Assembly (NCBI GenBank): GCA_964574335.1
Contig: CAZNNH010000004.1
Coordinates: forward strand, 28,724 to 92,723
Direction of reading: 5' to 3'
Origin: an uncultured Acidobacteriota bacterium
GTDB taxonomy: Bacteria; Acidobacteriota; Vicinamibacteria; Fen-336
Length of the DNA stretch: 64,000 nucleotides
Positions 17,997-49,365 of this stretch are shown here, piece by piece. The position numbers and the translations under genes are program-made. How positions within the stretch are numbered: position 1 is the stretch's first letter; every line of letters begins with the position of its first letter. The notes beneath the pieces are model-generated. The model was not told the DNA's origin. It saw nothing but the letters and a program-made list of their open reading frames with translations, and ran no database searches.

Positions 17997-18671
17997 ATGA
18001 ACCATCGTGGGGCGGTCATCCTGACGATCGCCGGCCTAGTGCTGGCCGGCGCGGCCTGCGGCCACCGCCAGCAGGGAGTGGTGGACAACTACTTCCGTGC
18101 GGTCAATGCCGGAGACAACCAGACGCTCAGCAGCTTCGCCCTGGTCGGCTTCGACCAGAAGGTCGACAACTGGAAGATCGTGGCTGGTCATCCCGAGACC
18201 GAGAGCCCGGCGCCGCTGGTCGAGCTGGCCCAAGGGGTCAGCGACGCGGAAGCCGCCCTGGCCGCCAACAAGAAGGAGTACAACGCCTATTTCCTCGACC
18301 ACCCGTCGGAGGTGGACCAGGTTCGCGAGCTGCTGCGGACCGAGGCACGAATCCCCACCAAGCTCCAGAAGTACGCAGAGGACTGGCAGGCCTTCATCGA
18401 GAAGGAGAAGGAGCTGAAGCGTGCCCTGGCGGAGGCCAAGGAGGCCCTGGCCCACGAGAAGAAGATCGCCGCCCTCTCGGTCGAGCCCGACGACGGTATC
18501 GAGAAGCTGGTGGGTACCGTCCACACTCAGGACATCGACCTGATGCTGACCATCGATGGCCAGGAGAAGCCGTACACCATAACCCTCCGGAAGTACGACC
18601 TGAGCGAAACCGAGGGGGGACCGGAGCGGCTCAGCCGTTGGGTGATCTGCGAGCTGAAGCCCACCGCCTAG
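17997..18671 (+). CDS. Hypothetical secreted or lipoprotein with a K/E-rich coiled-coil segment
   Basis: A strong AAGGAGGA RBS is present. The signal peptide is MNHRGAVILTIAGLVLAGAAC. No recognisable catalytic motif was found. Confidence 0.5.
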   Translation: MNHRGAVILTIAGLVLAGAACGHRQQGVVDNYFRAVNAGDNQTLSSFALVGFDQKVDNWKIVAGHPETESPAPLVELAQGVSDAEAALAANKKEYNAYFLDHPSEVDQVRELLRTEARIPTKLQKYAEDWQAFIEKEKELKRALAEAKEALAHEKKIAALSVEPDDGIEKLVGTVHTQDIDLMLTIDGQEKPYTITLRKYDLSETEGGPERLSRWVICELKPTA

Positions 18672-25073: not shown

Positions 25074-25976
25074 ATGGCCTATCGAAGGACTCTCAGGCGG
25101 GCGGTTGGCTGCACCGGGATCGGCCTTCACTCCGGCCGCGCCGTCCACCTCGAGATCAAGCCGGCGCCCGCCGAGCATGGCATCCGCTTCCTCCGGACGG
25201 ACGTGGGCGTGACCATCCCCGCCACCCTCGCCCACCTGGGTCGGACCGACCACGCCACCTCCCTGAGCGCCGGGGGCTTCTCGGTGGAGACGGTGGAACA
25301 CCTGCTCTCGGCCCTGCAGGGCCTCGGTGTGGACGACGCTCTGGTGGAGGTCGACCGCCCAGAGCTGCCGATCCTGGATGGCAGCGCGGCCCCGTACGTG
25401 TTCCTTCTTCACGAAGCCGGGCTCCGACCGCAGCGAGCGCCCCGGCGGTTCCTCAAGGTCCTCCAGCCGGTCGAGGTGGTTCACGGCGGCAAGCGCGTAC
25501 GGCTCTCTCCTGCCGACCACTTCCGTGTCAGCTACTCCATCGGCTTCGAGCACCCGCTGCTCCGGCGCCAGTCGGCGTCGTTCCGTGTCAGCGCCCAGAC
25601 CTTCACCGAGAGCATCGCGCCCGCCCGCACCTTCGGCTTCCTGAGAGAGGTCGAGCAGCTTCGGCGCAAGGGGCTCGCCCTCGGTGGGAGCCTGGAGAAC
25701 GCGGTGGTGATCAGCGAGGGCGGGGTGCTCAACAACAACCTGCGCTTCCAGGACGAGTTCGTCCGCCACAAGATCCTGGACGCGGTTGGCGACCTCGCCC
25801 TGCTCGGGCGCCCCCTCCTCGCCCACCTCGAAGCCGAGAAGGCCGGGCACGCGATGCACACAGCCGTCGCCCAGCGGCTTCTGGAGACGCCGGAAGCCTG
25901 GGCCTTGGTCGCCCATCCCCAGCTTCCTACCGTAGACGTGGCGCCGGCCCGGGAGCCGGTCCTCGAGATTCCCTGA
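25074..25976 (+). CDS. lpxC: UDP-3-O-acyl-N-acetylglucosamine deacetylase
   Basis: A 300-aa protein with the LpxC two-domain profile and conserved Zn-ligand His/Asp context (HxxxD...HKILD). It marks a lipid A pathway and hence an outer membrane. Confidence 0.9.
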   Translation: MAYRRTLRRAVGCTGIGLHSGRAVHLEIKPAPAEHGIRFLRTDVGVTIPATLAHLGRTDHATSLSAGGFSVETVEHLLSALQGLGVDDALVEVDRPELPILDGSAAPYVFLLHEAGLRPQRAPRRFLKVLQPVEVVHGGKRVRLSPADHFRVSYSIGFEHPLLRRQSASFRVSAQTFTESIAPARTFGFLREVEQLRRKGLALGGSLENAVVISEGGVLNNNLRFQDEFVRHKILDAVGDLALLGRPLLAHLEAEKAGHAMHTAVAQRLLETPEAWALVAHPQLPTVDVAPAREPVLEIP

Positions 25977-25999
25977 TCACGACCCGCCGGGGGAGCGGC

Positions 26000-26410
26000 C
26001 TACTTCCCCTTGGGCTCGACCACTGTCGCCAAAAGCAGCACCGTGAAGGACTTCTGGCCCATGTCATTGGAGTGTATCAGGACCCTCTTGCGGAGGTGAC
26101 GGGGGCTGGACCCGGTCCTCAGCGTGGCGCGCAGCACCGTGCTCTCGCCGGGGGCGAGGAGCTTGTCGTCGAGCAGCGCCGCCGTGCACCCGCAGTCGGT
26201 CAGCACCTTCTCGATCACGAGCTCCTTGGTCCCCTGATTGGAGACCGTGAACTCCTTCTCCACCGTCTTGTTGGGGAGCACCTCGCCGAAGTCGAATTGC
26301 GACGGCTCGACGGCGATCCGCGGCCCGCGGATCCTCCCCTTGGCCGGCCCGTCAGAACCTGCCGGCAAGAGCAGCAGCCCTGCCAGCAGCAGCCCCAGAC
26401 CACCCGTCAT
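26000..26410 (-). CDS. DUF1573 (ASH/Ig-like) secreted protein
   Basis: Signal peptide followed by the FDFGEV...FTVSNQG...CGCT...SNDM pattern typical of DUF1573. Confidence 0.6.
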   Translation of the reverse strand: MTGGLGLLLAGLLLLPAGSDGPAKGRIRGPRIAVEPSQFDFGEVLPNKTVEKEFTVSNQGTKELVIEKVLTDCGCTAALLDDKLLAPGESTVLRATLRTGSSPRHLRKRVLIHSNDMGQKSFTVLLLATVVEPKGK

Positions 26411-26718
26411 GATGACCTCCCCGCTGCCCGCCCCCGAGCCTTCTTTCTGTTGTTCCCCGAGGTCAGCCGCCGCATGTAGGCGTCCAGGATCTCGTTCTCG
26501 TAGGTGACCGAGTTCAGGAACAGGCTCTCTACAAGATAACTCTGCCGGTCCTCCTCGGTCATCTGGGTCACCAGCCCCCGGATCTCCCGCATCATGTCCT
26601 CGAAGGAGACCTGGAGCTTCTTCTTGAGCGTGACCTCCCGGTACAGGGTCTCGAGCAGCGCCAGAAGGTCCCCGTCCAGGGGGAGCTCGAAGCCCGTCGA
26701 TAGCCGGACGCTACGCAC
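26407..26718 (-). CDS. Hypothetical 103-aa protein, the unknown partner in a sigma/STAS operon
   Basis: It shows 4-nt and 8-nt overlaps with the flanking genes. No recognisable domain was found. Confidence 0.4.
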   Translation of the reverse strand: MRSVRLSTGFELPLDGDLLALLETLYREVTLKKKLQVSFEDMMREIRGLVTQMTEEDRQSYLVESLFLNSVTYENEILDAYMRRLTSGNNRKKARGRAAGRSS

Positions 26719-27079
26719 CGCCGCGGCCCTCCGAGGCCTGGCTGCCGAACGCCAGCAGCGCCTCCTTTTCGTCCTTGTGAATCTCGATGATCCGGTGGAC
26801 CCCGGTCATCGAGAGCATGGTCTCGACGCGTGGCTGGAGGCCGCTCAGCCGGAGCCGCCCCGAGCGGTCGTCCAAGAGCCGATGGATGTCCATCAGGCAG
26901 CCGATCGAGGCGCTGTCGACGTAGCTGACCGCAGCCAGGTCGATCACCAGCCCGCGGGCCCCCTCCTCGACCAACTGCCTGATGTCCGCGAAGAACGAGG
27001 ACAGGACCGGGTAGGTGAGCTTCGCTTCTTGGACGCGCACCACCCGGACCTCTCCGTGACTCTCCACCAGAAGACGCAT
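26711..27079 (-). CDS. STAS-domain anti-sigma-factor antagonist (SpoIIAA/RsbV-like)
   Basis: MRLLVESHGEVRVVRVQEAKLTYPVLSSFFADIRQLVEEG...VDSASIG. The ATG at 27077-79 has a GGAGGTG RBS. The track also allows a GTG at 27133. Confidence 0.7.
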   Translation of the reverse strand: MRLLVESHGEVRVVRVQEAKLTYPVLSSFFADIRQLVEEGARGLVIDLAAVSYVDSASIGCLMDIHRLLDDRSGRLRLSGLQPRVETMLSMTGVHRIIEIHKDEKEALLAFGSQASEGRGGA

Positions 27080-27083
27080 CAGC

Positions 27084-27788
27084 TCACCTCCGAGCCTCGG
27101 CCCGTCGTCGCCCTGGCCGTGCCATCCCCCCACCCCCGGGCTGCTGGGCGCGCAGCAGCAGACGGGTCAGCTCCTCGCGTCCCCGGTTGATCCGGCTCTT
27201 GACCGTCCCCTCGGGCAGCCGCAGCCGGTCCGCCATCTCCTGGTAGCTGAGCCCCTGGAGGTCGCGGAGCACGACCGCCTCCCGCAGCTTGTCGGGGAGC
27301 AGCTCGAGGCCTCGACGGAGGAAACCCCTCCGGTCGAGGTCCTCGAGGGTGCGGTGTGGGTTGCCGTACTTCGCCGGAGCCAGATCGAAGGCCACCAGGT
27401 CCTCGACCAGGACCTCTCGCTCCCGCTTGCGGGCCCGGTAGTGGTCGATGCAGTAGTTGCGGGCCACGCTGGACAGCCAGGTAGAGAAGTCGGCGTCCCG
27501 GTGGAACTTGTCCAGGCTCTTGAAGACCTTCAGGAACACCTCCTGGGTCAGGTCCTCCGCCTGATCGTGCTTGCCCGTGAACTTGTAGGCGATGTGGAAG
27601 ACCTTCCTCCGGAAGCGAGTGACGATTTGCTCCCAGGCGGCGTTGTCTCTGCGCAGGCAGCGCTCGATCAGCTCGCCGTCGGATGCCGTCACTCTACCCC
27701 CGGCCGAGGGCTGCGCTCTGGGTTGGGTTCCCGCCGTGCTCCGACCTTCCTGGGTTCGGATGATAGGTGGCGATGCCGACAGAATCAA
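27084..27788 (-). CDS. ECF-type sigma-70 family RNA polymerase sigma factor
   Basis: Region 2 (DLTQEVFLKVFKSL...WLSSVARNYCIDHYR) and region 4 (LSYQEMADRLRLPEGTVKSRI) are present. The true start may be internal. Confidence 0.8.
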   Translation of the reverse strand: MILSASPPIIRTQEGRSTAGTQPRAQPSAGGRVTASDGELIERCLRRDNAAWEQIVTRFRRKVFHIAYKFTGKHDQAEDLTQEVFLKVFKSLDKFHRDADFSTWLSSVARNYCIDHYRARKREREVLVEDLVAFDLAPAKYGNPHRTLEDLDRRGFLRRGLELLPDKLREAVVLRDLQGLSYQEMADRLRLPEGTVKSRINRGREELTRLLLRAQQPGGGGMARPGRRRAEARR

Positions 27789-27801
27789 ACCAGGCGGGCA
27801 G

Positions 27802-28632
27802 CTACTGAAGCACGGGTCGCCCCGCCTGGCTCCAAGCCGTGAACCAGAAGCTCCCGCACTCGCCGGCGGCCTGGCTCAGCCGACCGCTGATGATGTCGCG
27901 GATGCGATCGGCCAGGGCCTCGTAGTAGAGCTCGGTGTAGCCGCCCCGGCCGCGGTGGGCGAGGTCTTCCTCGTAGAGCAGGTTGTCGACCCAGATGTAG
28001 CTGGCCAGGATCAAGCCGAAGACGTGCTCGTACGGGTCGTCCAGGAAGTGAGCGGCGTCCGGTTTCACCTTGATCGCCTTCTCGGCGGCCTCGGGGAACT
28101 TCTGGCTCAGGCGCACCCAGAGCCCGTGCTGTTCGGTCATCTGCCCGTCGAAGTTCTCGGTCAGGGCCAGTGGGTTGTGCAGGTCGGTCACCAGGCTGGC
28201 GAGGGTGTCGGACTCGGCGAGAATGCGCCCCTTGTCAGCGGCGCGGAAGGCCTCTACCAGGCGGGCGTAGGCGTCGTCGATGAGCCACGGTAGGCGACCG
28301 ACCCTGTCGGCTGTCGCGCCGAAACGCGCCTTCAGCTCCTTTTCGGAGCGGGGTATGTCGCGGAACGGGAACGGGGCCACCAGATCGGCCGCGAACCGTC
28401 GCTCCGGTCCCTCTGTAGGCAACTCGGCATCTGGGGCCAGGCTGGGAAGCTCGTCGCGGTGGTCACGGTAGAACTTCTTGAGCCCCTTGGGCAGGGTATC
28501 GACCGCAGCGGAGGTGACCAGTCGGTGCGCCACCGGGCCCCACGCCCAAGCGGCCCCAGGATTGAGGGCCAACGTCGCCGCCAGGCACGCACCCACCAAC
28601 ACCGGCCACCGTCGCTCCCGCGGGTCGATCAT
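27802..28632 (-). CDS. Secreted protein that may have an S1/P1-nuclease or zinc phospholipase C-like fold
   Basis: A signal peptide is followed by a mature N-terminus WGPVAH, matching the WGxxGH start of the S1/P1 family. Multiple His/Asp residues are present. The assignment rests on motifs only. Confidence 0.35.
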   Translation of the reverse strand: MIDPRERRWPVLVGACLAATLALNPGAAWAWGPVAHRLVTSAAVDTLPKGLKKFYRDHRDELPSLAPDAELPTEGPERRFAADLVAPFPFRDIPRSEKELKARFGATADRVGRLPWLIDDAYARLVEAFRAADKGRILAESDTLASLVTDLHNPLALTENFDGQMTEQHGLWVRLSQKFPEAAEKAIKVKPDAAHFLDDPYEHVFGLILASYIWVDNLLYEEDLAHRGRGGYTELYYEALADRIRDIISGRLSQAAGECGSFWFTAWSQAGRPVLQ

Positions 28633-28648
28633 CGTCTCCCTCCACTCT

Positions 28649-29374
28649 TCACCGAGCCACCCGCGCCACCGTCAGCAGGCGGACCGCACGCGCCCCGGCC
28701 TGCCGAAGCGCCGAAGCACAGGCACGGCTGGTGGCCCCGGTCGTACACACGTCGTCCACCAGCACGACCTTCTTTCCATGAATCCGAGCCCGACGTCGAA
28801 CCACGAACGCGCCGGCTACGTTTCGGCGTCGGCCCGCCGCCGAGAGCCCGGTTTGTGGCGCTGTCTCCTTGCGGCGGGTCAGGGCGTCCTTCTCCACCGG
28901 GACACCCGCCCGTCGCGCCAGCGCCGTGGCGATCAGCTCGGCCTGATTGTAGCCGCGCTGCCGGCGCCTTCGCGGGTGGAGGGGAATCGGCACCACCACC
29001 GCCCCCGGATCGAAGAGCGCCCGCACCTCTGCCTCCCGCCACAGTAGCTCGGCGAGCCGCCCCGACACCCGCTGGCGGCCCTTGAACTTGAGCTCCTGAA
29101 CCAGGATCTTGAGGGGGCCTTCGTAGGGACCGAGGCTGGCCCCTGCGTCGAAGTGGGAGAGCCCCCGCCGACATCGCCCGCAGGGTCCAGAAACGGTCTC
29201 GGGCAGGATCGTGCCACACTCACAGGCCCCGCCGCGGTGGCGCGGGAGACGTTGCCAGCACCGCTCGCACAGCGGCCCCTGCAGAGGTCGCTCGACCGGG
29301 TCGCTGCACGCCGGGCAACGAGCCGGAAAGACCAGGGCCAGGACCGGGTCGATCACCCGTGCCAGAGAAGCCAT
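28649..29374 (-). CDS. comF: ComF-family protein (phosphoribosyltransferase-domain competence protein)
   Basis: An N-terminal C4 zinc ribbon (CPACSD...CERC) is followed by a C-terminal PRTase motif VVLVDDVCTTGAT. Confidence 0.8.
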   Translation of the reverse strand: MASLARVIDPVLALVFPARCPACSDPVERPLQGPLCERCWQRLPRHRGGACECGTILPETVSGPCGRCRRGLSHFDAGASLGPYEGPLKILVQELKFKGRQRVSGRLAELLWREAEVRALFDPGAVVVPIPLHPRRRRQRGYNQAELIATALARRAGVPVEKDALTRRKETAPQTGLSAAGRRRNVAGAFVVRRRARIHGKKVVLVDDVCTTGATSRACASALRQAGARAVRLLTVARVAR

Positions 29375-29795: not shown

Positions 29796-30746
29796 TCACG
29801 GGATCCCGTATCGCTTGCGTTTCTCCCACAGCGCCTTGCGGCTGATCCCCAGGATCGAGGCCGCCCTGGTCTGGCTGCCGCCCACCACCTCGAGCACGTG
29901 CCGGATGTAGGCCTGCTCCACGTCGCGCAATGACAGGTAGCGCTCGCGTCCGGCCCACAACGTGGTCGGCTGTTCGAGCAGGTGGCCGGGGAAGGCCGAG
30001 CACCGGATGGTGTCGCCGTCGGCATACAGGGCCGCCCGCTCGACCACCGACCGGAGCTCCCGGACGTTCCCCGGCCAGGCGTAGCCCCGCAGCAGGGACA
30101 GCGCCTCGTCGTCGAAGCCCCGGGCCCCGGTGGTGCCGCGGGTGCGTTCCCGGGCCAGGAACCGCTCCGCCAGCGGGCGGATGTCCTCGCGCCGGCTGCG
30201 GAGTGGCGGCAACGTCAGCGGGACGACGCTCAGCCGATGGAACAGATCCTCGCGGAAGGTCCCCTCGGCCACCGCGGCCCGCAGATCGATGTTCGAGGAG
30301 GCCACGAACCGGACGTCGACCTCGAGGGTGCGGGTCCCCCCCAGCCGCTCGAAGCGGCGGTCCTCCACCACCCTCAGCAGCTTGGCCTGCAGGGGGAGGG
30401 TCAGATCCTGTATCTGATCAAAGTACAGCGTGCCCCCGGCGGCCATCTCGATCTTGCCCGCCTTGGCCTGACGGGCGTCGGTGAAGGCGCCCCGCTCATG
30501 CCCGAACAGCTCCGACTCCAGCAGGTTCTCGGGGATCGACGGGCAGTGAACCTTCACGAAGGCGCTGTCGCGCCGCGGGCCCCCGTAGTGTAGCCAGTGG
30601 GCGAGCAGGTCCTTGCCGGTACCGCTCTCTCCCTCGAGCAGCACCGGGCTGCGGGCCGCCGCCAGGCGACCGGTGATCTCCAAGATCTCCCGCATCGCCG
30701 GCGAGGCCGCCACCACCCCGCTGGGAGCACCCAGGAGTGCCTCCAT
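29796..30746 (-). CDS. Sigma-54-dependent transcriptional activator, PspF-like (AAA+ plus Fis-HTH, no regulatory N-domain)
   Basis: It starts directly in the AAA+ domain (GESGTGKDLLA Walker A), has ESELFGHERGAFTDA (a GAFTGA variant) and a C-terminal HTH (RAASILGISRKALWEKRKRYGI). Confidence 0.8.
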   Translation of the reverse strand: MEALLGAPSGVVAASPAMREILEITGRLAAARSPVLLEGESGTGKDLLAHWLHYGGPRRDSAFVKVHCPSIPENLLESELFGHERGAFTDARQAKAGKIEMAAGGTLYFDQIQDLTLPLQAKLLRVVEDRRFERLGGTRTLEVDVRFVASSNIDLRAAVAEGTFREDLFHRLSVVPLTLPPLRSRREDIRPLAERFLARERTRGTTGARGFDDEALSLLRGYAWPGNVRELRSVVERAALYADGDTIRCSAFPGHLLEQPTTLWAGRERYLSLRDVEQAYIRHVLEVVGGSQTRAASILGISRKALWEKRKRYGIP

Positions 30747-36463: not shown

Positions 36464-37243
36464 CTACTGAAGGAGGATGCGCGTCCCGCGGATCTTCTGG
36501 GGAGAGATGACTCCGAGGAAGTTGGGGAGCAGGCGATCCATCAGCTCGAAGTACGACGACAGCGGCGACACCTTCTGGTCCGCCCCGTAGAGCACCTCCT
36601 CGGTGAAGCGCTCCTTGTGAAGCACCTCGCCGGAGCGACCGTCGACGAACACGAAGTCGGCGTCGAGGCTGAACCCTCTCCGCTCCAGAAAGCGGTTCTG
36701 CCGGATGAGCCGGGGCCGGTTCGAGGCGTCACGAACCACTCGCTCCTCGGCCTGATAGCCGGATCGGTTCTTCTCCTCGAAGCTCACCCTGCCGGTGACG
36801 ATCAGCGGTGACTGATACTCCTCGCCGATCTTGCGCCAGAAGGCGGCATCTTGCAGGGCCTGGCCGGCCCGCAGGTCGTACTGCTCCCGGTCTTCCTTGG
36901 TGTAGTGCCCCTCCTCGCCGAGGCTCTGCTTGATCTGGTCCAGGGCGTCGTAGAGAGGGGGGCGGTCCGGCTCCAAGACCTGCAGCTTCGAGTTCGAGCG
37001 GAGCTGGTTCTGGAGCAGCCGGGCGGTCTCCGAGGCAACGTCCACGTCGCCCGCAGTCAGCTCGCCCACGAAGCCCGCCACCAGCACGCGACGGAACGCC
37101 CTCACGTCGATCTTGCTCTGCAGCGGCACCTGTACCGGCACCTCTACGTAGCCGGTGCAGCTCGACAGGGCGAGGAGGGTGATGACACCCAGCCCGAGGC
37201 TAGGGACGCTGCCGTGCTTGGCTCTTCCGGTTCCGCTTGTCAT
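36464..37243 (-). CDS. Hypothetical lipoprotein
   Basis: The 259-aa tail of track ORF 36464..37543 starts MTSGTGRAKHGSVPSLGLGVITLLALSSC (lipobox LSSC). Upstream residues of the track ORF overlap the TPR gene in another frame. Confidence 0.5.
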   Translation of the reverse strand: MTSGTGRAKHGSVPSLGLGVITLLALSSCTGYVEVPVQVPLQSKIDVRAFRRVLVAGFVGELTAGDVDVASETARLLQNQLRSNSKLQVLEPDRPPLYDALDQIKQSLGEEGHYTKEDREQYDLRAGQALQDAAFWRKIGEEYQSPLIVTGRVSFEEKNRSGYQAEERVVRDASNRPRLIRQNRFLERRGFSLDADFVFVDGRSGEVLHKERFTEEVLYGADQKVSPLSSYFELMDRLLPNFLGVISPQKIRGTRILLQ

Positions 37244-37547
37244 CGGCTTCCCTGAACAGGTCGTAGTTCTGCTGGATGTAGACGTCCCCGGGCCGCAGCT
37301 CGAGGGCCCGCTCGTAGGCCTTGCGGGCCTTGTCGAACTCCCCCGCCTGCTCCAGCGCCACCGCCAGGTCGTTGAGCGCGTGGGCATTGTCGGGGTCGAG
37401 CAGCACCGCCTTCTCGAACCGGAACTGAGCCTCACGCCACAGCCCCTTCCTGGCCACCTGGATGCCGAAGCGGAGCTCCTCCTTGCTCGTTGAGACGGAG
37501 CCGGTCTGGGCCAGCAGCAACAGGGAGAGTGGAATCGCGGCAAGCAT
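37200..37547 (-). CDS. Secreted TPR-repeat protein
   Basis: Signal peptide MLAAIPLSLLLLAQTGS, followed by TPR helices (ALNDLAVALEQAGEFDKARKAYERALELRP). Confidence 0.6.
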   Translation of the reverse strand: MLAAIPLSLLLLAQTGSVSTSKEELRFGIQVARKGLWREAQFRFEKAVLLDPDNAHALNDLAVALEQAGEFDKARKAYERALELRPGDVYIQQNYDLFREADDKRNRKSQARQRP

Positions 37548-42882: not shown

Positions 42883-43760
42883 AGCGCGCGCTGGCCGCCT
42901 TTGTCCGTCACCTCGAGGCGGAGCGCAACCTGTCTCCCCATACGACCAAGGCGTATCGGGAGGATCTCGAGCAGTTCGTGGCCCACGCCGCCTCGTCCCT
43001 TGGCCGCTCGCCGCGCCCGGCCGAGATCGACCACCTGATGATCCGGAGCTTTCTGGCCCGGCTCCACGCGCGCGGCCTCAAGAAGACCACGACGGGCCGG
43101 AAGCTGGCGGCCATTCGGACCTTCTTTCGCTTCCTCTGCCGCGAAGGACAGCTCCAGACGAATCCCAGCCGGGCCCTGCTCTCGCCCCGCCAGGAGCGGC
43201 GCATCCCGAGCCGGCTGGAGGAAAGTGAGGTGGCGGACCTGCTGGACATCCCCCAGAAGGGAAGAGCGGCCATCAAAGCTCGCGCCCTTCTGGAGCTGCT
43301 CTACTCCACAGGAATCCGGTGCGCCGAGCTGGTGGGGCTGGATCTCGATGACGTGGATCGCGACGCCCGCATGCTCAGGGTTCTGGGCAAAGGCAGAAAA
43401 GAGCGCATCGTTCCCTTCGGCAGTCGCGCCCTCCAGGCACTGACAGAGTACCTCCCGATCCGGGCCGCCACCCACCCGAGGACGGACGCCCTCTTCGTGA
43501 ACCCACAGGGAGAGAGGCTCACGGACCGCGGAGTGAGGTACATCGTGGCTCGCCGGGTGAGGCAGGTGGCGGCACGCAAGAAGATCAGTCCCCACACCCT
43601 CCGTCACAGCTTCGCCACCCACCTGCTCGAAAGAGGTGCCGACCTCCGCGCCATCCAGGAGCTTCTCGGCCACGCCAGCCTCTCTACAACCCAGCGGTAC
43701 ACCCACGTAGACGCCCGGCATCTTCTGGCGATATACAGAAAGACCCACCCACGCGCTTGA
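42879..43760 (+). CDS. xerC: Tyrosine recombinase XerC/XerD (CodV-like chromosome dimer resolution)
   Basis: The true ATG at 42879 overlaps the trmFO stop (ATGA). The catalytic residues R...HxxR...Y are present (HTLRHSFATHLLERGADLRAIQELLGHASLSTTQRYTH). Confidence 0.9.
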   Translation: MKRALAAFVRHLEAERNLSPHTTKAYREDLEQFVAHAASSLGRSPRPAEIDHLMIRSFLARLHARGLKKTTTGRKLAAIRTFFRFLCREGQLQTNPSRALLSPRQERRIPSRLEESEVADLLDIPQKGRAAIKARALLELLYSTGIRCAELVGLDLDDVDRDARMLRVLGKGRKERIVPFGSRALQALTEYLPIRAATHPRTDALFVNPQGERLTDRGVRYIVARRVRQVAARKKISPHTLRHSFATHLLERGADLRAIQELLGHASLSTTQRYTHVDARHLLAIYRKTHPRA

Positions 43761-43837
43761 TCGCCGCCTGCCAGGACTCAGCCCAACGAGTCGAGCCGTC
43801 CACAAGCGGGGGAAGAGCGTCCTATCATTCAAGGCCG

Positions 43838-44437
43838 ATGGCGCCCAGTGATGAGCAGCTCGTTCAGGCGGCGCAGTCTGGGGACAGTGCCGCCTTCGGC
43901 CAGCTCGTGGATCGGTGGGATCGGAAGATCCGGGGCGCCATCTACCGTGTCCTGGGCTCGGACGACGAGGCCCGGGACCTGACCCAGGAGGCGTTCTTCA
44001 AGGCGTACCGAGGGCTTCCGTCGTTCAAGCAGGAGGCCCGCTTCTCCTCCTGGCTGTACCAGATCGCGCTCAATCTCTGTCGCGACCGGATGCGGCGCAA
44101 GAGAGGCCGCATCCACATGAGCCTGGAAGAGCTCGAGCTTGCCGGATCGGCCCGCCTGATCGAGAGCGGGCCCTCCGTCCAGGAGATGGCCGAGGCCGGC
44201 GAGCTGTCGCGGGTCGTGGCCACGGCAGTTGCGGCGCTGCCTGCCGAGCAGCGCGAGGTGATCGTGCTCAAGGAGTACCAGGAGCTGACCTTCGCGGAGA
44301 TCGCGGAGGTGCTGGCTCTCCCGGTATCGACCGTCAAGACCCGCCTGTATCGAGGCCTCGGGCAGCTTCGCCAGAGCCTCGAACGGCGTGGCATCCACGG
44401 CTCGACGGCGTTACCGCGAGCTTCCGGAGAATCCTGA
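43838..44437 (+). CDS. ECF sigma factor
   Basis: ATG 43838 with an AAGG RBS. Region 2 (DLTQEAFFKAYRGL...WLYQIALNLCRDRMR) and region 4 (LTFAEIAEVLALPVSTVKTRL) are present. Confidence 0.85.
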   Translation: MAPSDEQLVQAAQSGDSAAFGQLVDRWDRKIRGAIYRVLGSDDEARDLTQEAFFKAYRGLPSFKQEARFSSWLYQIALNLCRDRMRRKRGRIHMSLEELELAGSARLIESGPSVQEMAEAGELSRVVATAVAALPAEQREVIVLKEYQELTFAEIAEVLALPVSTVKTRLYRGLGQLRQSLERRGIHGSTALPRASGES

Positions 44438-45060
44438 TGGACTGCAGCGAGGTGCGAGACCAGATGCTCGACGTGCTCTACGGCGAGGCCGACGCCGACA
44501 TCCGGCGTCGCGTCGAGGAGCACCACGCCCAGTGCCCGGCCTGTCGGCACGAGCTCGAGGCGCTCCGCGGGGTGCGCCGCGCTCTTGCCCAGTGGCGCAT
44601 CCCGGAAAGACGATCTGTCCATGCCTTCCGCCTCGGCTGGCTGGCAGCCGCCGCCGTCCTGCTGGTGTCGCTGGGCGCCGCCTTGGGGCTTTCCGGGTCG
44701 GAGGTACGTTTCGAGAATGGCCGCCTGGCCTTCAGGCTCGGGCGCAGCGACGTCGAAAGCCGGCTCGCCGAGCAGGAGGCCCGCCACCGCACGGAGATGG
44801 CCCGCCTCCGCAGCGAGCTAGCGACGCGCGACAGCCTGCTGGCGGAGGTCGACCAGCGGCTGCGTGCCAGCGAGGCCCGGCAGGCGGCGCTGCTGAGCGC
44901 GGGCCTCAGCGAGCTGACCGCCCGCAACGAGGCCCAGCGACGATACGACCTGGCCCGGGTCAGCGCCAGCCTCTCCTATCTCGATGGGCGCACTGGCCAG
45001 CAACTGGCCCGGCAGACGGAGCTGATGGGCTATCTGTTGCAGGCCTCCGACCAGCGATGA
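44437..45060 (+). CDS. Anti-sigma factor with a zinc-finger (HxxxCxxC) and one TM segment
   Basis: MDCSEVRDQMLDVLYGEADADIRRRVEEHHAQCPACRHELEAL, then TM AFRLGWLAAAAVLLVSLGAALGL, then a periplasmic coiled coil. Its ATG overlaps the sigma stop (ATGA). Confidence 0.75.
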   Translation: MDCSEVRDQMLDVLYGEADADIRRRVEEHHAQCPACRHELEALRGVRRALAQWRIPERRSVHAFRLGWLAAAAVLLVSLGAALGLSGSEVRFENGRLAFRLGRSDVESRLAEQEARHRTEMARLRSELATRDSLLAEVDQRLRASEARQAALLSAGLSELTARNEAQRRYDLARVSASLSYLDGRTGQQLARQTELMGYLLQASDQR

Positions 45061-46691: not shown

Positions 46692-48097
46692 TGCCGATCC
46701 AGCTTCCGGCGTCGAGCCAGGAGCTCCACGACCTCGACCAGCTCACCCCACGACAGATCGTGGCCGAGCTCGACCGCTACGTGATCGGCCAAGACCAGGC
46801 CAAGCGGGCGGTGGCGATCGCCCTGCGAAACCGGGTGCGCCGTCAACGGCTCCCGCCGGAGCTGGCCACCGAGATCACCCCCCGCAACATCCTCATGATC
46901 GGCCCCACCGGGGTGGGCAAGACCGAGATCGCCCGGCGGCTGGCGCGGATGTCGAGCAGCCCTTTCGTCAAGGTCGAGGCATCCAAGTTCACCGAGGTCG
47001 GCTACGTGGGACGCGACGTCGAGTCGATCATCCGGGACCTCGTCGAAGCTGCCGTCCACCTGGTGCGCCGCGAGCGGCGGGCCGAGGTCCAGGACCGGGC
47101 CCGGCAGAATGTCGAGGAGCAGCTCCTCGACCTGCTGCTGCCGCCGCTTCGATCGCGACCGGCAGAGACGGCCGGTGCCGACGCCGAAGCGGCCGCATCC
47201 TCGCCCACCGAGTCCTTTCGGACCACACGGGAGCGCCTCCGCGCCCAGCTCCGGGCCGGCGAGCTCGACGCCCGCACCGTCGAGGTGGATGTCCCGCAGC
47301 GGAGCTTCCCCACCTTCCAGGTGATGAGCTCCCAGGGCGTCGAGGAGATGGACATCAACGTCAAGGACCTCCTGCCCGGGATCTTCGGCGGTCGCACCAA
47401 GCGCCGCACGTTGCCCGTCTCGGAGGCCCGCGAGGTCCTGCTCCGGGAGGAGGAGAACCGACTGGTGGACACCGAGCAGGTCTCCCGCCAGGCGGTGGAG
47501 CGAGCCCAGAGCTCGGGCATCGTCTTCCTGGACGAGATCGACAAGGTGGCGGGTCGCGAGGGCAGCCATGGGCCAGAGGTCTCGCGCGAAGGCGTCCAGC
47601 GCGACATCCTTCCCATCGTCGAGGGCACCACCGTTACCACCAAGCATGGCGCCGTGCGCACCGACCACATCCTCTTCATCGCCGCCGGGGCGTTCCACGT
47701 CTCGAAGCCCAGCGACCTGATCCCGGAGCTCCAGGGGCGCTTCCCGATCCGGGTCGAGCTCGCGTCCCTCTCCCGCGAAGACCTGCACCGGATCCTGACC
47801 GAGCCACGCAACGCCCTGCTCTCGCAGCACCAGGCGCTGCTCAAGACCGAGGGGCTGGAGCTCGACTTCGCCCCCGACGCGATCGCCGAGATCGCTCGCT
47901 TCGCCGCTGAGGTCAACGACGCCGCCGAGAACATCGGGGCCCGGCGGCTCGCCACCGTGCTCGAACGCCTGCTGGACGAAGTCTCCTTCGAAGGTCCAGC
48001 GGAGAGCCCTCGTCAGGTGCACATCGATGCCGAGGAGGTGCGCCGCAAGTTGGCCCCCCTGGTCAAGGACCAGGACCTCAGTCGCTTCATCCTGTGA
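46691..48097 (+). CDS. hslU: ATP-dependent protease ATPase subunit HslU (ClpY)
   Basis: ILMIGPTGVGKTEIARRLA (Walker A). It has a GTG start abutting the hslV stop. Confidence 0.93.
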   Translation: MPIQLPASSQELHDLDQLTPRQIVAELDRYVIGQDQAKRAVAIALRNRVRRQRLPPELATEITPRNILMIGPTGVGKTEIARRLARMSSSPFVKVEASKFTEVGYVGRDVESIIRDLVEAAVHLVRRERRAEVQDRARQNVEEQLLDLLLPPLRSRPAETAGADAEAAASSPTESFRTTRERLRAQLRAGELDARTVEVDVPQRSFPTFQVMSSQGVEEMDINVKDLLPGIFGGRTKRRTLPVSEAREVLLREEENRLVDTEQVSRQAVERAQSSGIVFLDEIDKVAGREGSHGPEVSREGVQRDILPIVEGTTVTTKHGAVRTDHILFIAAGAFHVSKPSDLIPELQGRFPIRVELASLSREDLHRILTEPRNALLSQHQALLKTEGLELDFAPDAIAEIARFAAEVNDAAENIGARRLATVLERLLDEVSFEGPAESPRQVHIDAEEVRRKLAPLVKDQDLSRFIL

Positions 48098-49365
48098 TGC
48101 GCCGCCGATTCTCCGCCGTCGCCCTCTGCGGCTGGCTCGCCGTCGGCCTGGCCAGCCCCGGCTGCGGAAAGCGCGGCGACCCGCTGCCCCCCATCGACCG
48201 CACCCCCCAGCCGGTGACCGACCTGAGCCTGGCCCAGCGAGGGGACCAGGTGGAGGTCCACTTCGCCGCCCCGCGCGCCACGGTGGAGGGGGACCGCCTG
48301 CCGGTGCTCGAGGTGGAGCTGTGGCGGGCCGACACCGACGGCGTCGACGTAGCGCAGTACAAGCGGCTGAAGGTGGCACCCGGTGAGCGGCTCGTGGAGA
48401 CCGAGCCCCGGCCCGCGCCCGGAACCACGCTTCGCTATGCCGCCCGCGCCCGGGTCGGCCGCGACCTCTCGCCGTACACCCGAGTGGTGGCGCTGAAGGT
48501 CCAGGAGCCGCCGGCCATCCCCCAGGACTTCGAGGCGGAGCTGCGTGCCGACGGTGTGATCCTGTCGTGGACACCGCCACCGCTGCCCGAATGGCTGACC
48601 GCGCCGGAGCCGGCCGAGGCAGAGGGCCCCGAAGAGGGCGAGGCGGTTGCGCCCGTTCCCCCGACCCCGCCGACCCCGTCGCCAGCGGCCGAGCCGACCA
48701 CACCCGCGGCGACTCCGGATCAGGCGGGACTGGCAACGGCCCCGATCAGCCCCGCCTCGGTCGCCAGCGAAGGGGGGGAGCCGCCGGCCGAGAAGGGCCC
48801 GGAGGGCGAGGAGCCGGCACTGGAGGCGGGCCCGAAGAAACCCGCTGCCGCGGCCAAGCCGACCCCCGAGCCGTTCCGCGGCGGCGTCAACGTCTATCGA
48901 CGCTCAGGATTCGCGGGCTACTCTCAGCCGCTCAACCCGACACCGATCGCCATCGACAAGTACCTCGACGCCGATCCGCCGATGAACGCCGAGACCTGCT
49001 ACGTCCTGCGCACCATCGTCTCCACTGACCCGACCGTGGAGAGCGCGGCTTCCAAGGAGCTGTGCCTCCAGGTACGCGACATCGTGGCTCCGGCGGCCCC
49101 GATCGGTGTTGCCGTGAGGATCGCCGAGGACCGTCTCGAGATCACCTGGAGCGCCTCCGGGGAGGCGGACCTGGCGTTGTACCGGGTCTATTGCAGCGAG
49201 GGTGAGGGTCCCGCGGTACCGGTTGCCGACGTTCCCGGTGGGACGACCGTGCTCTACGAGAGCCTACCGGCCGAATCGGGAGCCCTCGTCTACACCGTGA
49301 CCGCCATCGACACGGCCGGCAACGAGAGCCCGCCTTCAGCCCCTGCCCCGGTACGACTTCCCTGA
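48094..49365 (+). CDS. Lipoprotein or secreted protein with fibronectin-III-like domains and a Pro/Ala/Glu-rich linker
   Basis: Signal peptide MMRRRFSAVALCGWLAVGLASPGC. FN3-like strands (VILSWTPPP, LEITWSAS...YRVYCSE...YTVTAIDTAGNES). Its start overlaps the hslU stop (ATGA). Confidence 0.55.
   Translation: MMRRRFSAVALCGWLAVGLASPGCGKRGDPLPPIDRTPQPVTDLSLAQRGDQVEVHFAAPRATVEGDRLPVLEVELWRADTDGVDVAQYKRLKVAPGERLVETEPRPAPGTTLRYAARARVGRDLSPYTRVVALKVQEPPAIPQDFEAELRADGVILSWTPPPLPEWLTAPEPAEAEGPEEGEAVAPVPPTPPTPSPAAEPTTPAATPDQAGLATAPISPASVASEGGEPPAEKGPEGEEPALEAGPKKPAAAAKPTPEPFRGGVNVYRRSGFAGYSQPLNPTPIAIDKYLDADPPMNAETCYVLRTIVSTDPTVESAASKELCLQVRDIVAPAAPIGVAVRIAEDRLEITWSASGEADLALYRVYCSEGEGPAVPVADVPGGTTVLYESLPAESGALVYTVTAIDTAGNESPPSAPAPVRLP

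Follow-up and report, generated by a model that had tools for sequence, protein, structure and literature searches.

We analysed a window of 64,000 nucleotides from an uncultured Acidobacteriota bacterium of the class Vicinamibacteria (lineage Fen-336; contig CAZNNH010000004.1 of assembly GCA_964574335.1), and we report here on a small operon on its minus strand. The operon encodes, in the order of transcription, a sigma factor of the extracytoplasmic function (ECF) type, a single-domain STAS protein, an uncharacterised protein of 103 amino acids (aa), which we call X, and a DUF1573 protein (Table 1). An earlier note, based on a reading of the bare sequence, had described the locus as a four-gene operon forming a partner-switching module without a kinase. 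The four tightly spaced open reading frames (ORFs), at 27084..27788, 26711..27133, 26407..26718 and 26000..26410, lie on the minus strand at the stated positions; Pfam and NCBIfam searches bore out the identities of their products, and the overlaps of 8 nt between the STAS and X genes and of 4 nt between the X and DUF1573 genes are as claimed. All four genes have a composition of the coding type, with a GC content of 0.86-0.91 at third codon positions (GC3) and 0.39-0.47 at second ones (GC2) in a genome of 69% GC, and the long plus-strand ORFs across the same DNA are the usual high-GC shadows.

A promoter scan of positions 25800..28800 gave a single promoter-like site, against a mean of 0.1 in shuffled sequence, and this site is of the housekeeping sigma-70 type. 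The TTG at 27788, with which the longest ORF of the sigma gene would start, is its -35 box, and therefore the sigma factor likely starts at the GTG at 27692; the N-termini of the orthologs, the promoter position and a G-rich stretch upstream point to the same start, and the part of the ORF between 27692 and 27788 is likely promoter and leader. The likely start of the STAS gene, ATG 27079, is preceded by a GGAGGTG Shine-Dalgarno sequence, with the stop codon of the sigma gene 4 nt upstream. Of 79 related loci, 37 have the pattern GTTTGACC-N17/18-TATCAT/TATGAT upstream of their sigma gene with at least 10 of 13 matches, a level reached by only 0.6% of random segments, and an extended -10 element, TGnTATCAT, occurs in more distant clades. 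No ECF-type promoter, as autoregulation by the sigma factor would call for, was noticed on reading the upstream regions, for which no dedicated scan for such promoters was run. Since a sigma-70-type promoter is present and no ECF-type one was seen, expression of the operon looks constitutive and its control is probably post-translational. The leader of ~70 nt has no Rfam match and folds no better than shuffled sequence (z=+2), and the scan of 25800..28800 showed no terminator-like site in the 23 nt between the operon end and the converging lpxC gene.

Table 1. Coordinates of the operon, of related gene arrangements and of neighbouring features. Positions are those of the window unless a locus (L number) is named.
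Feature	Position or locus	Strand	Remarks
Operon promoter, housekeeping sigma-70 type	27760..27788	-	-35 TTGATT (27788..27783), 17-nt spacer, -10 TATCAT (27765..27760)
ECF (group 4) sigma factor, 202 aa, MTASDGELIERC...	27084..27692	-	GTG 27692; Sigma70_r2, Sigma70_r4_2, TIGR02937
Single-domain STAS protein, anti-sigma-antagonist type, 122 aa	26711..27079	-	ATG 27079; PF01740
Codon AGC, STAS Ser56	26912..26914	-	Aligned to SpoIIAA phospho-acceptor serine; motif Y-V-D-S-A-S-I-G-C-L-M-D
Protein X, 103 aa, uncharacterised family	26407..26718	-	8-nt overlap with STAS stop
DUF1573 protein, 136 aa, Ig-like	26000..26410	-	Clade-specific fourth gene; overlaps X stop by 4 nt (ATGA)
Radical-SAM gene	L088 6341..7666; also 25 other loci, e.g. 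L038, L043, L051, L056		Vicinamibacterales-type genomes
Dxs-cation efflux-STAS-X	L083, L086, L087		Sigma-less context
Upstream divergent gene, then STAS-X	L089		Sigma-less context
Unknown 453-aa gene, STAS-X, converging RecD2	L090, L091		Sigma-less context
DnaB (opposite strand), STAS, X, hybrid histidine kinase	L092 (3134..7400), L093		Sigma-less context
Weak STAS match, then X	L084		Sigma-less context
Second ECF sigma factor	43757..44437	+	Pfam r2 and r4_2
zf-HC2 (ZAS) motif in the next ORF	~44443..44547	+	Follows second ECF sigma factor; region 43757..45060
lpxC	25074..26000 region, ends 25976	+	Converges on DUF1573 stop at 26000
276-aa protein	27802..28632	-	Directly upstream of operon promoter
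Sigma-54 enhancer-binding protein	29796..30746	-	AAA+ and Fis-type helix-turn-helix
ORF with coding-type GC3	17997..18671	+	No Pfam family
ORF with coding-type GC3	36464..37543	-	No Pfam family
ORF with coding-type GC3	48094..49365	+	No Pfam family; sub-threshold fn3 only

The operon sigma factor matches the Pfam families Sigma70_r2 (2.6e-21) and Sigma70_r4_2 (1.8e-15), with no match to region 3 or region 1, scores 116 bits against TIGR02937 (sigma70-ECF; cut-off 42.9) and has SigE, SigH, RpoE and SigW as its closest solved relatives (E 1e-28 to 1e-24). By these matches it is a member of the ECF sigma factors (group 4) with sigma2 and sigma4 domains only. It was assigned to no named ECF group, and no equivalog model reached its cut-off. 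The group ECF270, whose model protein is from an Acidobacteria bacterium (69% GC), was considered and rejected, as it is regulated by zinc-binding anti-sigma (ZAS) factors and X has neither Cys nor His. Sigma factors of the RpoE, SigE, SigW and SigH type normally have a cognate anti-sigma factor encoded next door. None adjoins the sigma gene here: the products of the two downstream genes, STAS and X, match no anti-sigma family in Pfam or NCBIfam, which agrees with the earlier description of an ECF sigma factor accompanied by a STAS protein in place of its cognate anti-sigma factor. A contrast is offered by a second ECF sigma factor in the same window, 34% identical to the first, which is followed by an ORF with a zf-HC2 (ZAS) anti-sigma motif; these two genes form a canonical sigma/anti-sigma pair.

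The STAS protein matches PF01740 at 1.2e-17 and scores 53.8 bits against TIGR00377, barely above the cut-off of 53.45, and the solved SpoIIAA structures 1th8 and 1auz align to it with E ~1.5e-07. The conserved phosphorylatable residue raised in the earlier note is present as Ser56, which falls on the phospho-acceptor serine of SpoIIAA; the HMMER alignment places Y-V-D-S-A-S-I-G of the window (vDSasIG) on F-M-D-S-S-G-L-G of SpoIIAA (mDSsGLG), and the PDB variant 1tid has Ala at the matching position. Ser56 is unchanged in 73 of 73 STAS orthologs and in all eight (8/8) divergent STAS partners of X, whether or not these are linked to a sigma gene. Judged by its domain and this serine, the protein is an anti-sigma-factor antagonist of the SpoIIAA/RsbV type. 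As the acceptor serine has been kept, we argue that phosphorylation is still relevant; the conservation of Ser56 thus points to a kinase and a phosphatase encoded elsewhere in the genome.

Neither the operon nor the rest of the 64-kb window yielded a GHKL kinase or a PP2C phosphatase (Pfam scans of unassigned ORFs, other genes by eye); the only HATPase_c protein found in the window is GyrB, recognised by eye. Nor is either enzyme present in the Pfam-annotated tables covering +-6 kb around four other loci (L081, L085, L086 and L088). A regular expression for GHKL motifs matched nothing over all loci, yet it missed GyrB too and is thus a weak test. The hybrid histidine kinase that lies near STAS and X in L092 is not of the RsbW type. 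With no local kinase or phosphatase, any kinase would act in trans. The description of the module as lacking a kinase is therefore established for the locus only, while the invariance of the serine speaks for a kinase elsewhere.

Protein X belongs to a family that has no name so far. It matched no family in Pfam or NCBIfam. We collected 3,222 homologs at E<=0.01; the best 120 of them are 74-93% identical to X over the full length, and on none of these 120 was a Pfam domain found. The number of homologs and the full-length identity among the best 120 indicate that X is a real gene. The family is narrow, with 233 clusters among 1.84 billion cluster representatives in an exhaustive search, and its genuine full-length members are stand-alone proteins of ~90-130 aa. 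A Pfam scan of 35 members taken singly gave no consistent family, a PDB sequence profile search gave a best E of 0.1, and public sources carry X only as a "hypothetical protein"; no homology to a housekeeping family, which the earlier note had named as a ground for refuting its reading, appeared in the Pfam, NCBIfam and PDB profile searches. Several candidate relatives were rejected. Long matches had suggested that X might also occur as a domain within larger proteins. Of these, the 902-aa protein P0251 consists of low-complexity repeats, and P0157 and P0247 result from gene calls that are frameshifted or extended too far in high-GC DNA, as we presume for the other long matches. The match to aS33 of S. 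solfataricus (labelled 'VapB-type antitoxin') covers 36 residues at E=0.1 and was judged to be due to chance; aS33 is a Thermoprotei-specific ribosomal protein, for which its authors found no convincing bacterial homologs.

X consists of an acidic core of ~87 aa and a basic tail (NNRKKARGRAAGRSS). Its conserved motifs are LDGDLL, SFEDMMREI and YLxESLFLNxVTYENE, and the invariant or near-invariant residues are G9, D15, E45, Q52, Y61, L62, S65, L66, E74 and N75; there is no Cys or His, and hence no HxxxCxxC motif. Of 35 members, 33 have an acidic core. Strongly basic tails of low complexity (net +5 to +21) are found at either the C- or the N-terminus in separate sublineages, including the one of the window (26407..26457), and the Vicinamibacterales clade has an X without a basic tail. 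A confident AlphaFold2 model built from a 35-sequence alignment (predicted local distance difference test 84, predicted template modelling score 0.63) shows a two-strand N-terminal hairpin followed by helices at 18-32, 39-52 and 55-93, an arrangement other than that of a ribbon-helix-helix or antitoxin-like DNA binder, at which the N-terminal sequence had hinted. A Foldseek search of the model against the PDB gave no match under E=1, a search of a viral structure library gave none either, and no likeness to a known anti-sigma domain was seen in the sequence or among the fold matches listed.

In another reading X would be a small nucleic-acid binder with an HMG-box-like, L-shaped three-helix domain and a basic tail, acting as a transcription co-factor or nucleoid protein under the control of STAS. 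We consider this very improbable: the fold scores are in the range expected for a generic three-helix topology, with all Foldseek E-values above 1, nearly every member has an acidic core, acidic or polar residues make up most of the invariant positions, and the whole Vicinamibacterales clade does without the tail.

The conserved unit is formed by three genes rather than four. We took 80 loci from a species-level genome collection, all of them in Vicinamibacteria or in Acidobacteriota metagenome-assembled genomes, and counted their genes by tblastn of the window proteins over 81 loci. The order sigma-STAS-X is present in 80 of these 81 loci, the exception being truncated by a contig end, and it is maintained although the upstream and downstream genes vary. 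A DUF1573 gene follows X in only 35 of the 81, with a median identity of 47%. The four-gene operon of the earlier note thus holds for the window and not as a general unit, and its conservation extends to sigma-STAS-X in every uncut locus, with the fourth gene as a variable add-on. In 26 loci a radical-SAM gene of 441 aa (MSLNYLATRFTCSWPW...) takes the place of DUF1573, ~3-25 nt after X; the spacers shrink to a few nt once the true radical-SAM start is used, and the idea that the fourth gene has a promoter of its own after X was therefore rejected. The DUF1573 protein of the window matches PF07610 (8.2e-19; 67.9 bits, gathering cut-off 26.1) and PF22544 (3.5e-16), and its hydrophobic N-terminal segment resembles a signal peptide. 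Whichever gene stands fourth may be cargo of the module or one of its targets.

The three core genes are spaced like translationally coupled partners, with distances of -14 to +5 nt (74 of 79 loci) from the STAS stop to the X start and of mostly -4 to +25 nt from the sigma stop to the STAS start. LpxC lies within 5 kb in 66 of the 81 loci, and ComF, DksA, Obg and UvrA also recur nearby, so the gene order could be viewed as inherited synteny in a conserved origin-proximal region that holds three functionally unlinked proteins. We regard this as extremely improbable, since the start/stop overlaps, the one promoter that the genes share and the fact that STAS-X persists where the genomic surroundings are unrelated all speak for a common function.

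The pace at which X evolves is as slow as that of the sigma factor and of LpxC, and in 74 of 80 loci it is slower than that of STAS. In the clade with DUF1573 the median identities to the window proteins are 77% for sigma, 73% for X, 72% for LpxC, 66% for STAS and 47% for DUF1573, and in the clade without it they are 59% for X, 57% for LpxC, 55% for sigma and 47% for STAS. Such slow evolution fits a hub having several binding partners.

In the rsbV-rsbW and spoIIAA-spoIIAB pairs, the gene of the switch or anti-sigma protein directly follows that of the STAS protein. X lies directly after STAS in the same way, the spacing of the genes is that of translationally coupled partners, and a sigma factor of a type that normally comes with a regulator has no other one here. 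We infer from this arrangement that the operon could encode a partner switch in which X would be a non-kinase anti-sigma factor of the ECF sigma factor and STAS the antagonist of X, and we put the probability of this reading at roughly 40%. A further reason is that the STAS protein PA3347 displaces FlgM, which is a non-kinase anti-sigma factor as well (PMC8256260). The persistence of sigma-STAS-X in all 80 uncut loci, the sigma-70-type promoter, the slow evolution of X, its acidic core and the invariant Ser56 also speak for this reading. In the proposed mechanism, X as a soluble protein would hold the RpoE-like ECF sigma factor inactive, and unphosphorylated STAS would bind X and so free the sigma factor. 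A serine kinase and a PP2C-type phosphatase, with their genes in other parts of the genome, would determine the state of Ser56 and thereby let the stimulus in. The STAS-X pair might be an older, portable two-gene switch that was joined to the sigma factor in the Vicinamibacteria lineage, and the fourth gene (DUF1573 in the window, radical SAM in other loci) would be variable cargo and possibly a target. Still more tentatively, we propose that X could represent a new structural class of soluble anti-sigma factors, and that STAS-X could be a minimal partner switch with a kinase-less switch protein, wired to an RpoE-like ECF sigma factor in Vicinamibacteria.

The gene that X consistently accompanies is that of STAS, not that of the sigma factor. 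Divergent loci such as L085, whose X is 36% identical and where sigma-STAS-X is followed by converging LpxC and UvrA, and L088, with sigma-STAS-X-radical SAM, retain the sigma gene. Six divergent lineages have STAS directly before X, and none of the neighbouring genes called there encodes a sigma factor; their contexts are listed in Table 1. STAS is directly upstream of X wherever the upstream gene is readable, except on the 740-nt contig L082, where a HEAT-repeat gene has this place. In L092 and L093 a gap of 175 nt separates STAS and X, and 480 nt after X lies a 1000-aa HDOD-PAS-HATPase-receiver hybrid kinase, towards which a radical SAM/SPASM gene runs from the opposite direction. This kinase may be a signalling input for that version of the module. 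The main motifs of X are equally conserved in the sigma-linked and the sigma-less clades, which indicates that the core function of X needs no adjacent sigma factor. In a neighbour-joining tree the sigma-linked clade and the sigma-less one stand apart, and therefore STAS-X is a family-wide unit, whose join to the sigma gene looks like a single event.

These observations are what the main alternative builds on, namely that STAS-X is a self-contained switch with an output other than the operon sigma factor. X would then be a direct effector of STAS and might regulate, for instance, another protein, RNA polymerase or a nucleic acid, and the sigma factor would share the operon in one lineage without being sequestered by X. 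Several STAS-only proteins act on unknown targets according to reviews, among them SypA, BtrV, RbaV and HmpV (PMC8256260). On the other side, sigma-STAS-X has survived the rearrangement of both flanks and a deep divergence, down to the 36% identity of X mentioned above, and the operon sigma factor has no other candidate regulator nearby. Canonical rsbV-rsbW pairs are also found away from their sigma factor, and with this in mind the sigma-less contexts are compatible with an anti-sigma role. We judge an output of this other kind to be rather unlikely.

Besides the sigma-less lineages and the motifs that they share with the others, further points weigh against X as the anti-sigma factor of this operon. 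X is strongly conserved, whereas anti-sigma factors as a rule show poor conservation, and the basic tails that several of its sublineages carry would be out of the ordinary for such a factor. The evolutionary rates of sigma and X covary with a partial r of 0.41 given LpxC, where the controls reach 0.19-0.34, and with the ComF control the pair does not separate from them. Finally, the binding of X to the sigma factor is inferred from gene context. The covariation between sigma and STAS is the strongest of all pairs (partial r 0.61 given LpxC, 0.72 given ComF), and STAS, immediately after the sigma gene, occupies the usual position of an anti-sigma gene. It might be argued from this that STAS itself contacts the sigma factor, as inhibitor or stabiliser, and that X modulates STAS, for example by shielding or exposing Ser56 or as an adaptor, and does not bind the sigma factor. 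However, the covariation carries no significance estimate, and that of STAS with LpxC is equally high (0.71) under the other control; moreover, the reviews consulted describe no STAS protein that sequesters a sigma factor directly, and STAS-X pairs exist without a sigma gene nearby. We consider a direct contact of this kind improbable, and X as the sequestering partner of the sigma factor is the reading that we carry forward.

The window as a whole is a housekeeping region near the replication origin, with atpA, parAB, yidC, dnaA, dnaN, recF, gyrBA, glmSU, lpxC, obg, topA, hslUV, tamB and bamA, which were mostly recognised by eye from their translations, several being confirmed by Pfam; no enrichment of DnaA boxes was found near dnaA. 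The lpxC gene converges on the operon, and its linkage with uvrA to sigma-STAS-X is kept in the distant loci L085 and L088. Antisense transcription into lpxC by read-through from the operon is conceivable. On the other flank, a 276-aa protein has a signal-peptide-like hydrophobic N-terminus and a WGPVAH motif, matches no Pfam or NCBIfam family and is conserved in 32 of 81 loci, all of the closer clade. A sigma-54 enhancer-binding protein without an N-terminal receiver or sensor domain is encoded next to dksA and a comF-like gene, in an arrangement also seen in L081. Three sizeable ORFs with coding-type GC3 and no Pfam family are given in Table 1.

Few bacterial signalling families are as large as the ECF sigma factors, and new modes of their regulation have repeatedly been predicted first from conserved gene context. 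X is a candidate of this sort, conserved across a class of abundant and little-studied soil bacteria, evolving as slowly as an essential enzyme and known from thousands of sequences without a name. If X is an anti-sigma factor, a new class would be added to these factors, and a small orthogonal set of sigma factor, anti-sigma factor and antagonist would become available for synthetic circuits. The proposed mechanism, if true, would extend STAS partner switching to ECF sigma factors, as the first STAS-based switch acting directly on one, and would give an identity to one of the 'unknown targets' of the non-canonical STAS-only proteins. Even if X is not an anti-sigma factor, it remains a strong candidate for what a STAS-only protein targets directly.

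The classical ECF anti-sigma factors (ZAS or class I RsrA, RseA and RsiW; class II CnrY and NepR; class III RsbN) resemble X as predicted here in that X is small, helical and encoded in the operon of an ECF sigma factor. X differs from them in having no HxxxCxxC motif and no Pfam or NCBIfam anti-sigma match and in being separated from the sigma gene by the STAS gene, and no similarity to any named anti-sigma family was detected. Nothing on a sigma-STAS-X module was found in the literature searched, and neither the current ECF classification, in its main text, nor the reviews consulted describe a group with a conserved STAS neighbour and a small non-kinase partner. The authors of the classification note that soluble anti-sigma factors unlike the known ones escape their method.

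Two known loci share the ECF sigma factor with our operon. The btr locus of Bordetella combines the ECF sigma factor BtrS and a STAS protein with a conserved serine, as here, together with the kinase BtrW and the phosphatase BtrU (PMC7498569). It differs in having this full BtrW/BtrU set, and its partner switchers (BtrU/BtrW/BtrV) control type III secretion, while BtrS has its own secreted anti-sigma factor, BtrA. The accepted case of partner switching on an ECF sigma factor is EcfG-NepR-PhyR of the Alphaproteobacteria (ECF15), in which the anti-sigma factor is a small, soluble, helical non-kinase protein (PMC7826278, PMC8999054), as we propose for X. The antagonist there is PhyR, a sigma mimic fused to a receiver domain and phosphorylated on Asp by histidine kinases, whereas here it would be a STAS protein with a Ser site.

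On the STAS side, the likeness is to the Bacillus systems RsbV-RsbW-SigB and SpoIIAA-SpoIIAB-SigF, which also have a single-domain STAS protein with a phospho-acceptor serine, a STAS gene followed directly by the gene of its presumed partner, and the sigma gene in the same operon. The partner is a GHKL serine kinase there and an all-helical protein of ~87 aa, as predicted, here; the sigma factor belongs to group 3 there and is an ECF (group 4) member here; and the order is STAS-switch-sigma there and sigma-STAS-X here, with no kinase or PP2C gene in the neighbourhood. By analogy, the closest mechanistic precedent is PA3347 (HsbA) of P. aeruginosa, which in its unphosphorylated form binds FlgM and so frees sigma28, with the kinase/phosphatase PA3346 (HsbR) as a separate protein (PMC8256260). 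The precedent differs in its sigma factor FliA (group 3) and in that PA3346 is encoded beside the STAS gene, with none near the operon here, and FlgM is unrelated to X, for which, as for its relatives, no FlgM Pfam family is listed. The module of the window is thus most like a partner switch, yet it stands outside the canonical family, as the defining kinase/anti-sigma protein is absent and its sigma factor is of group 4.

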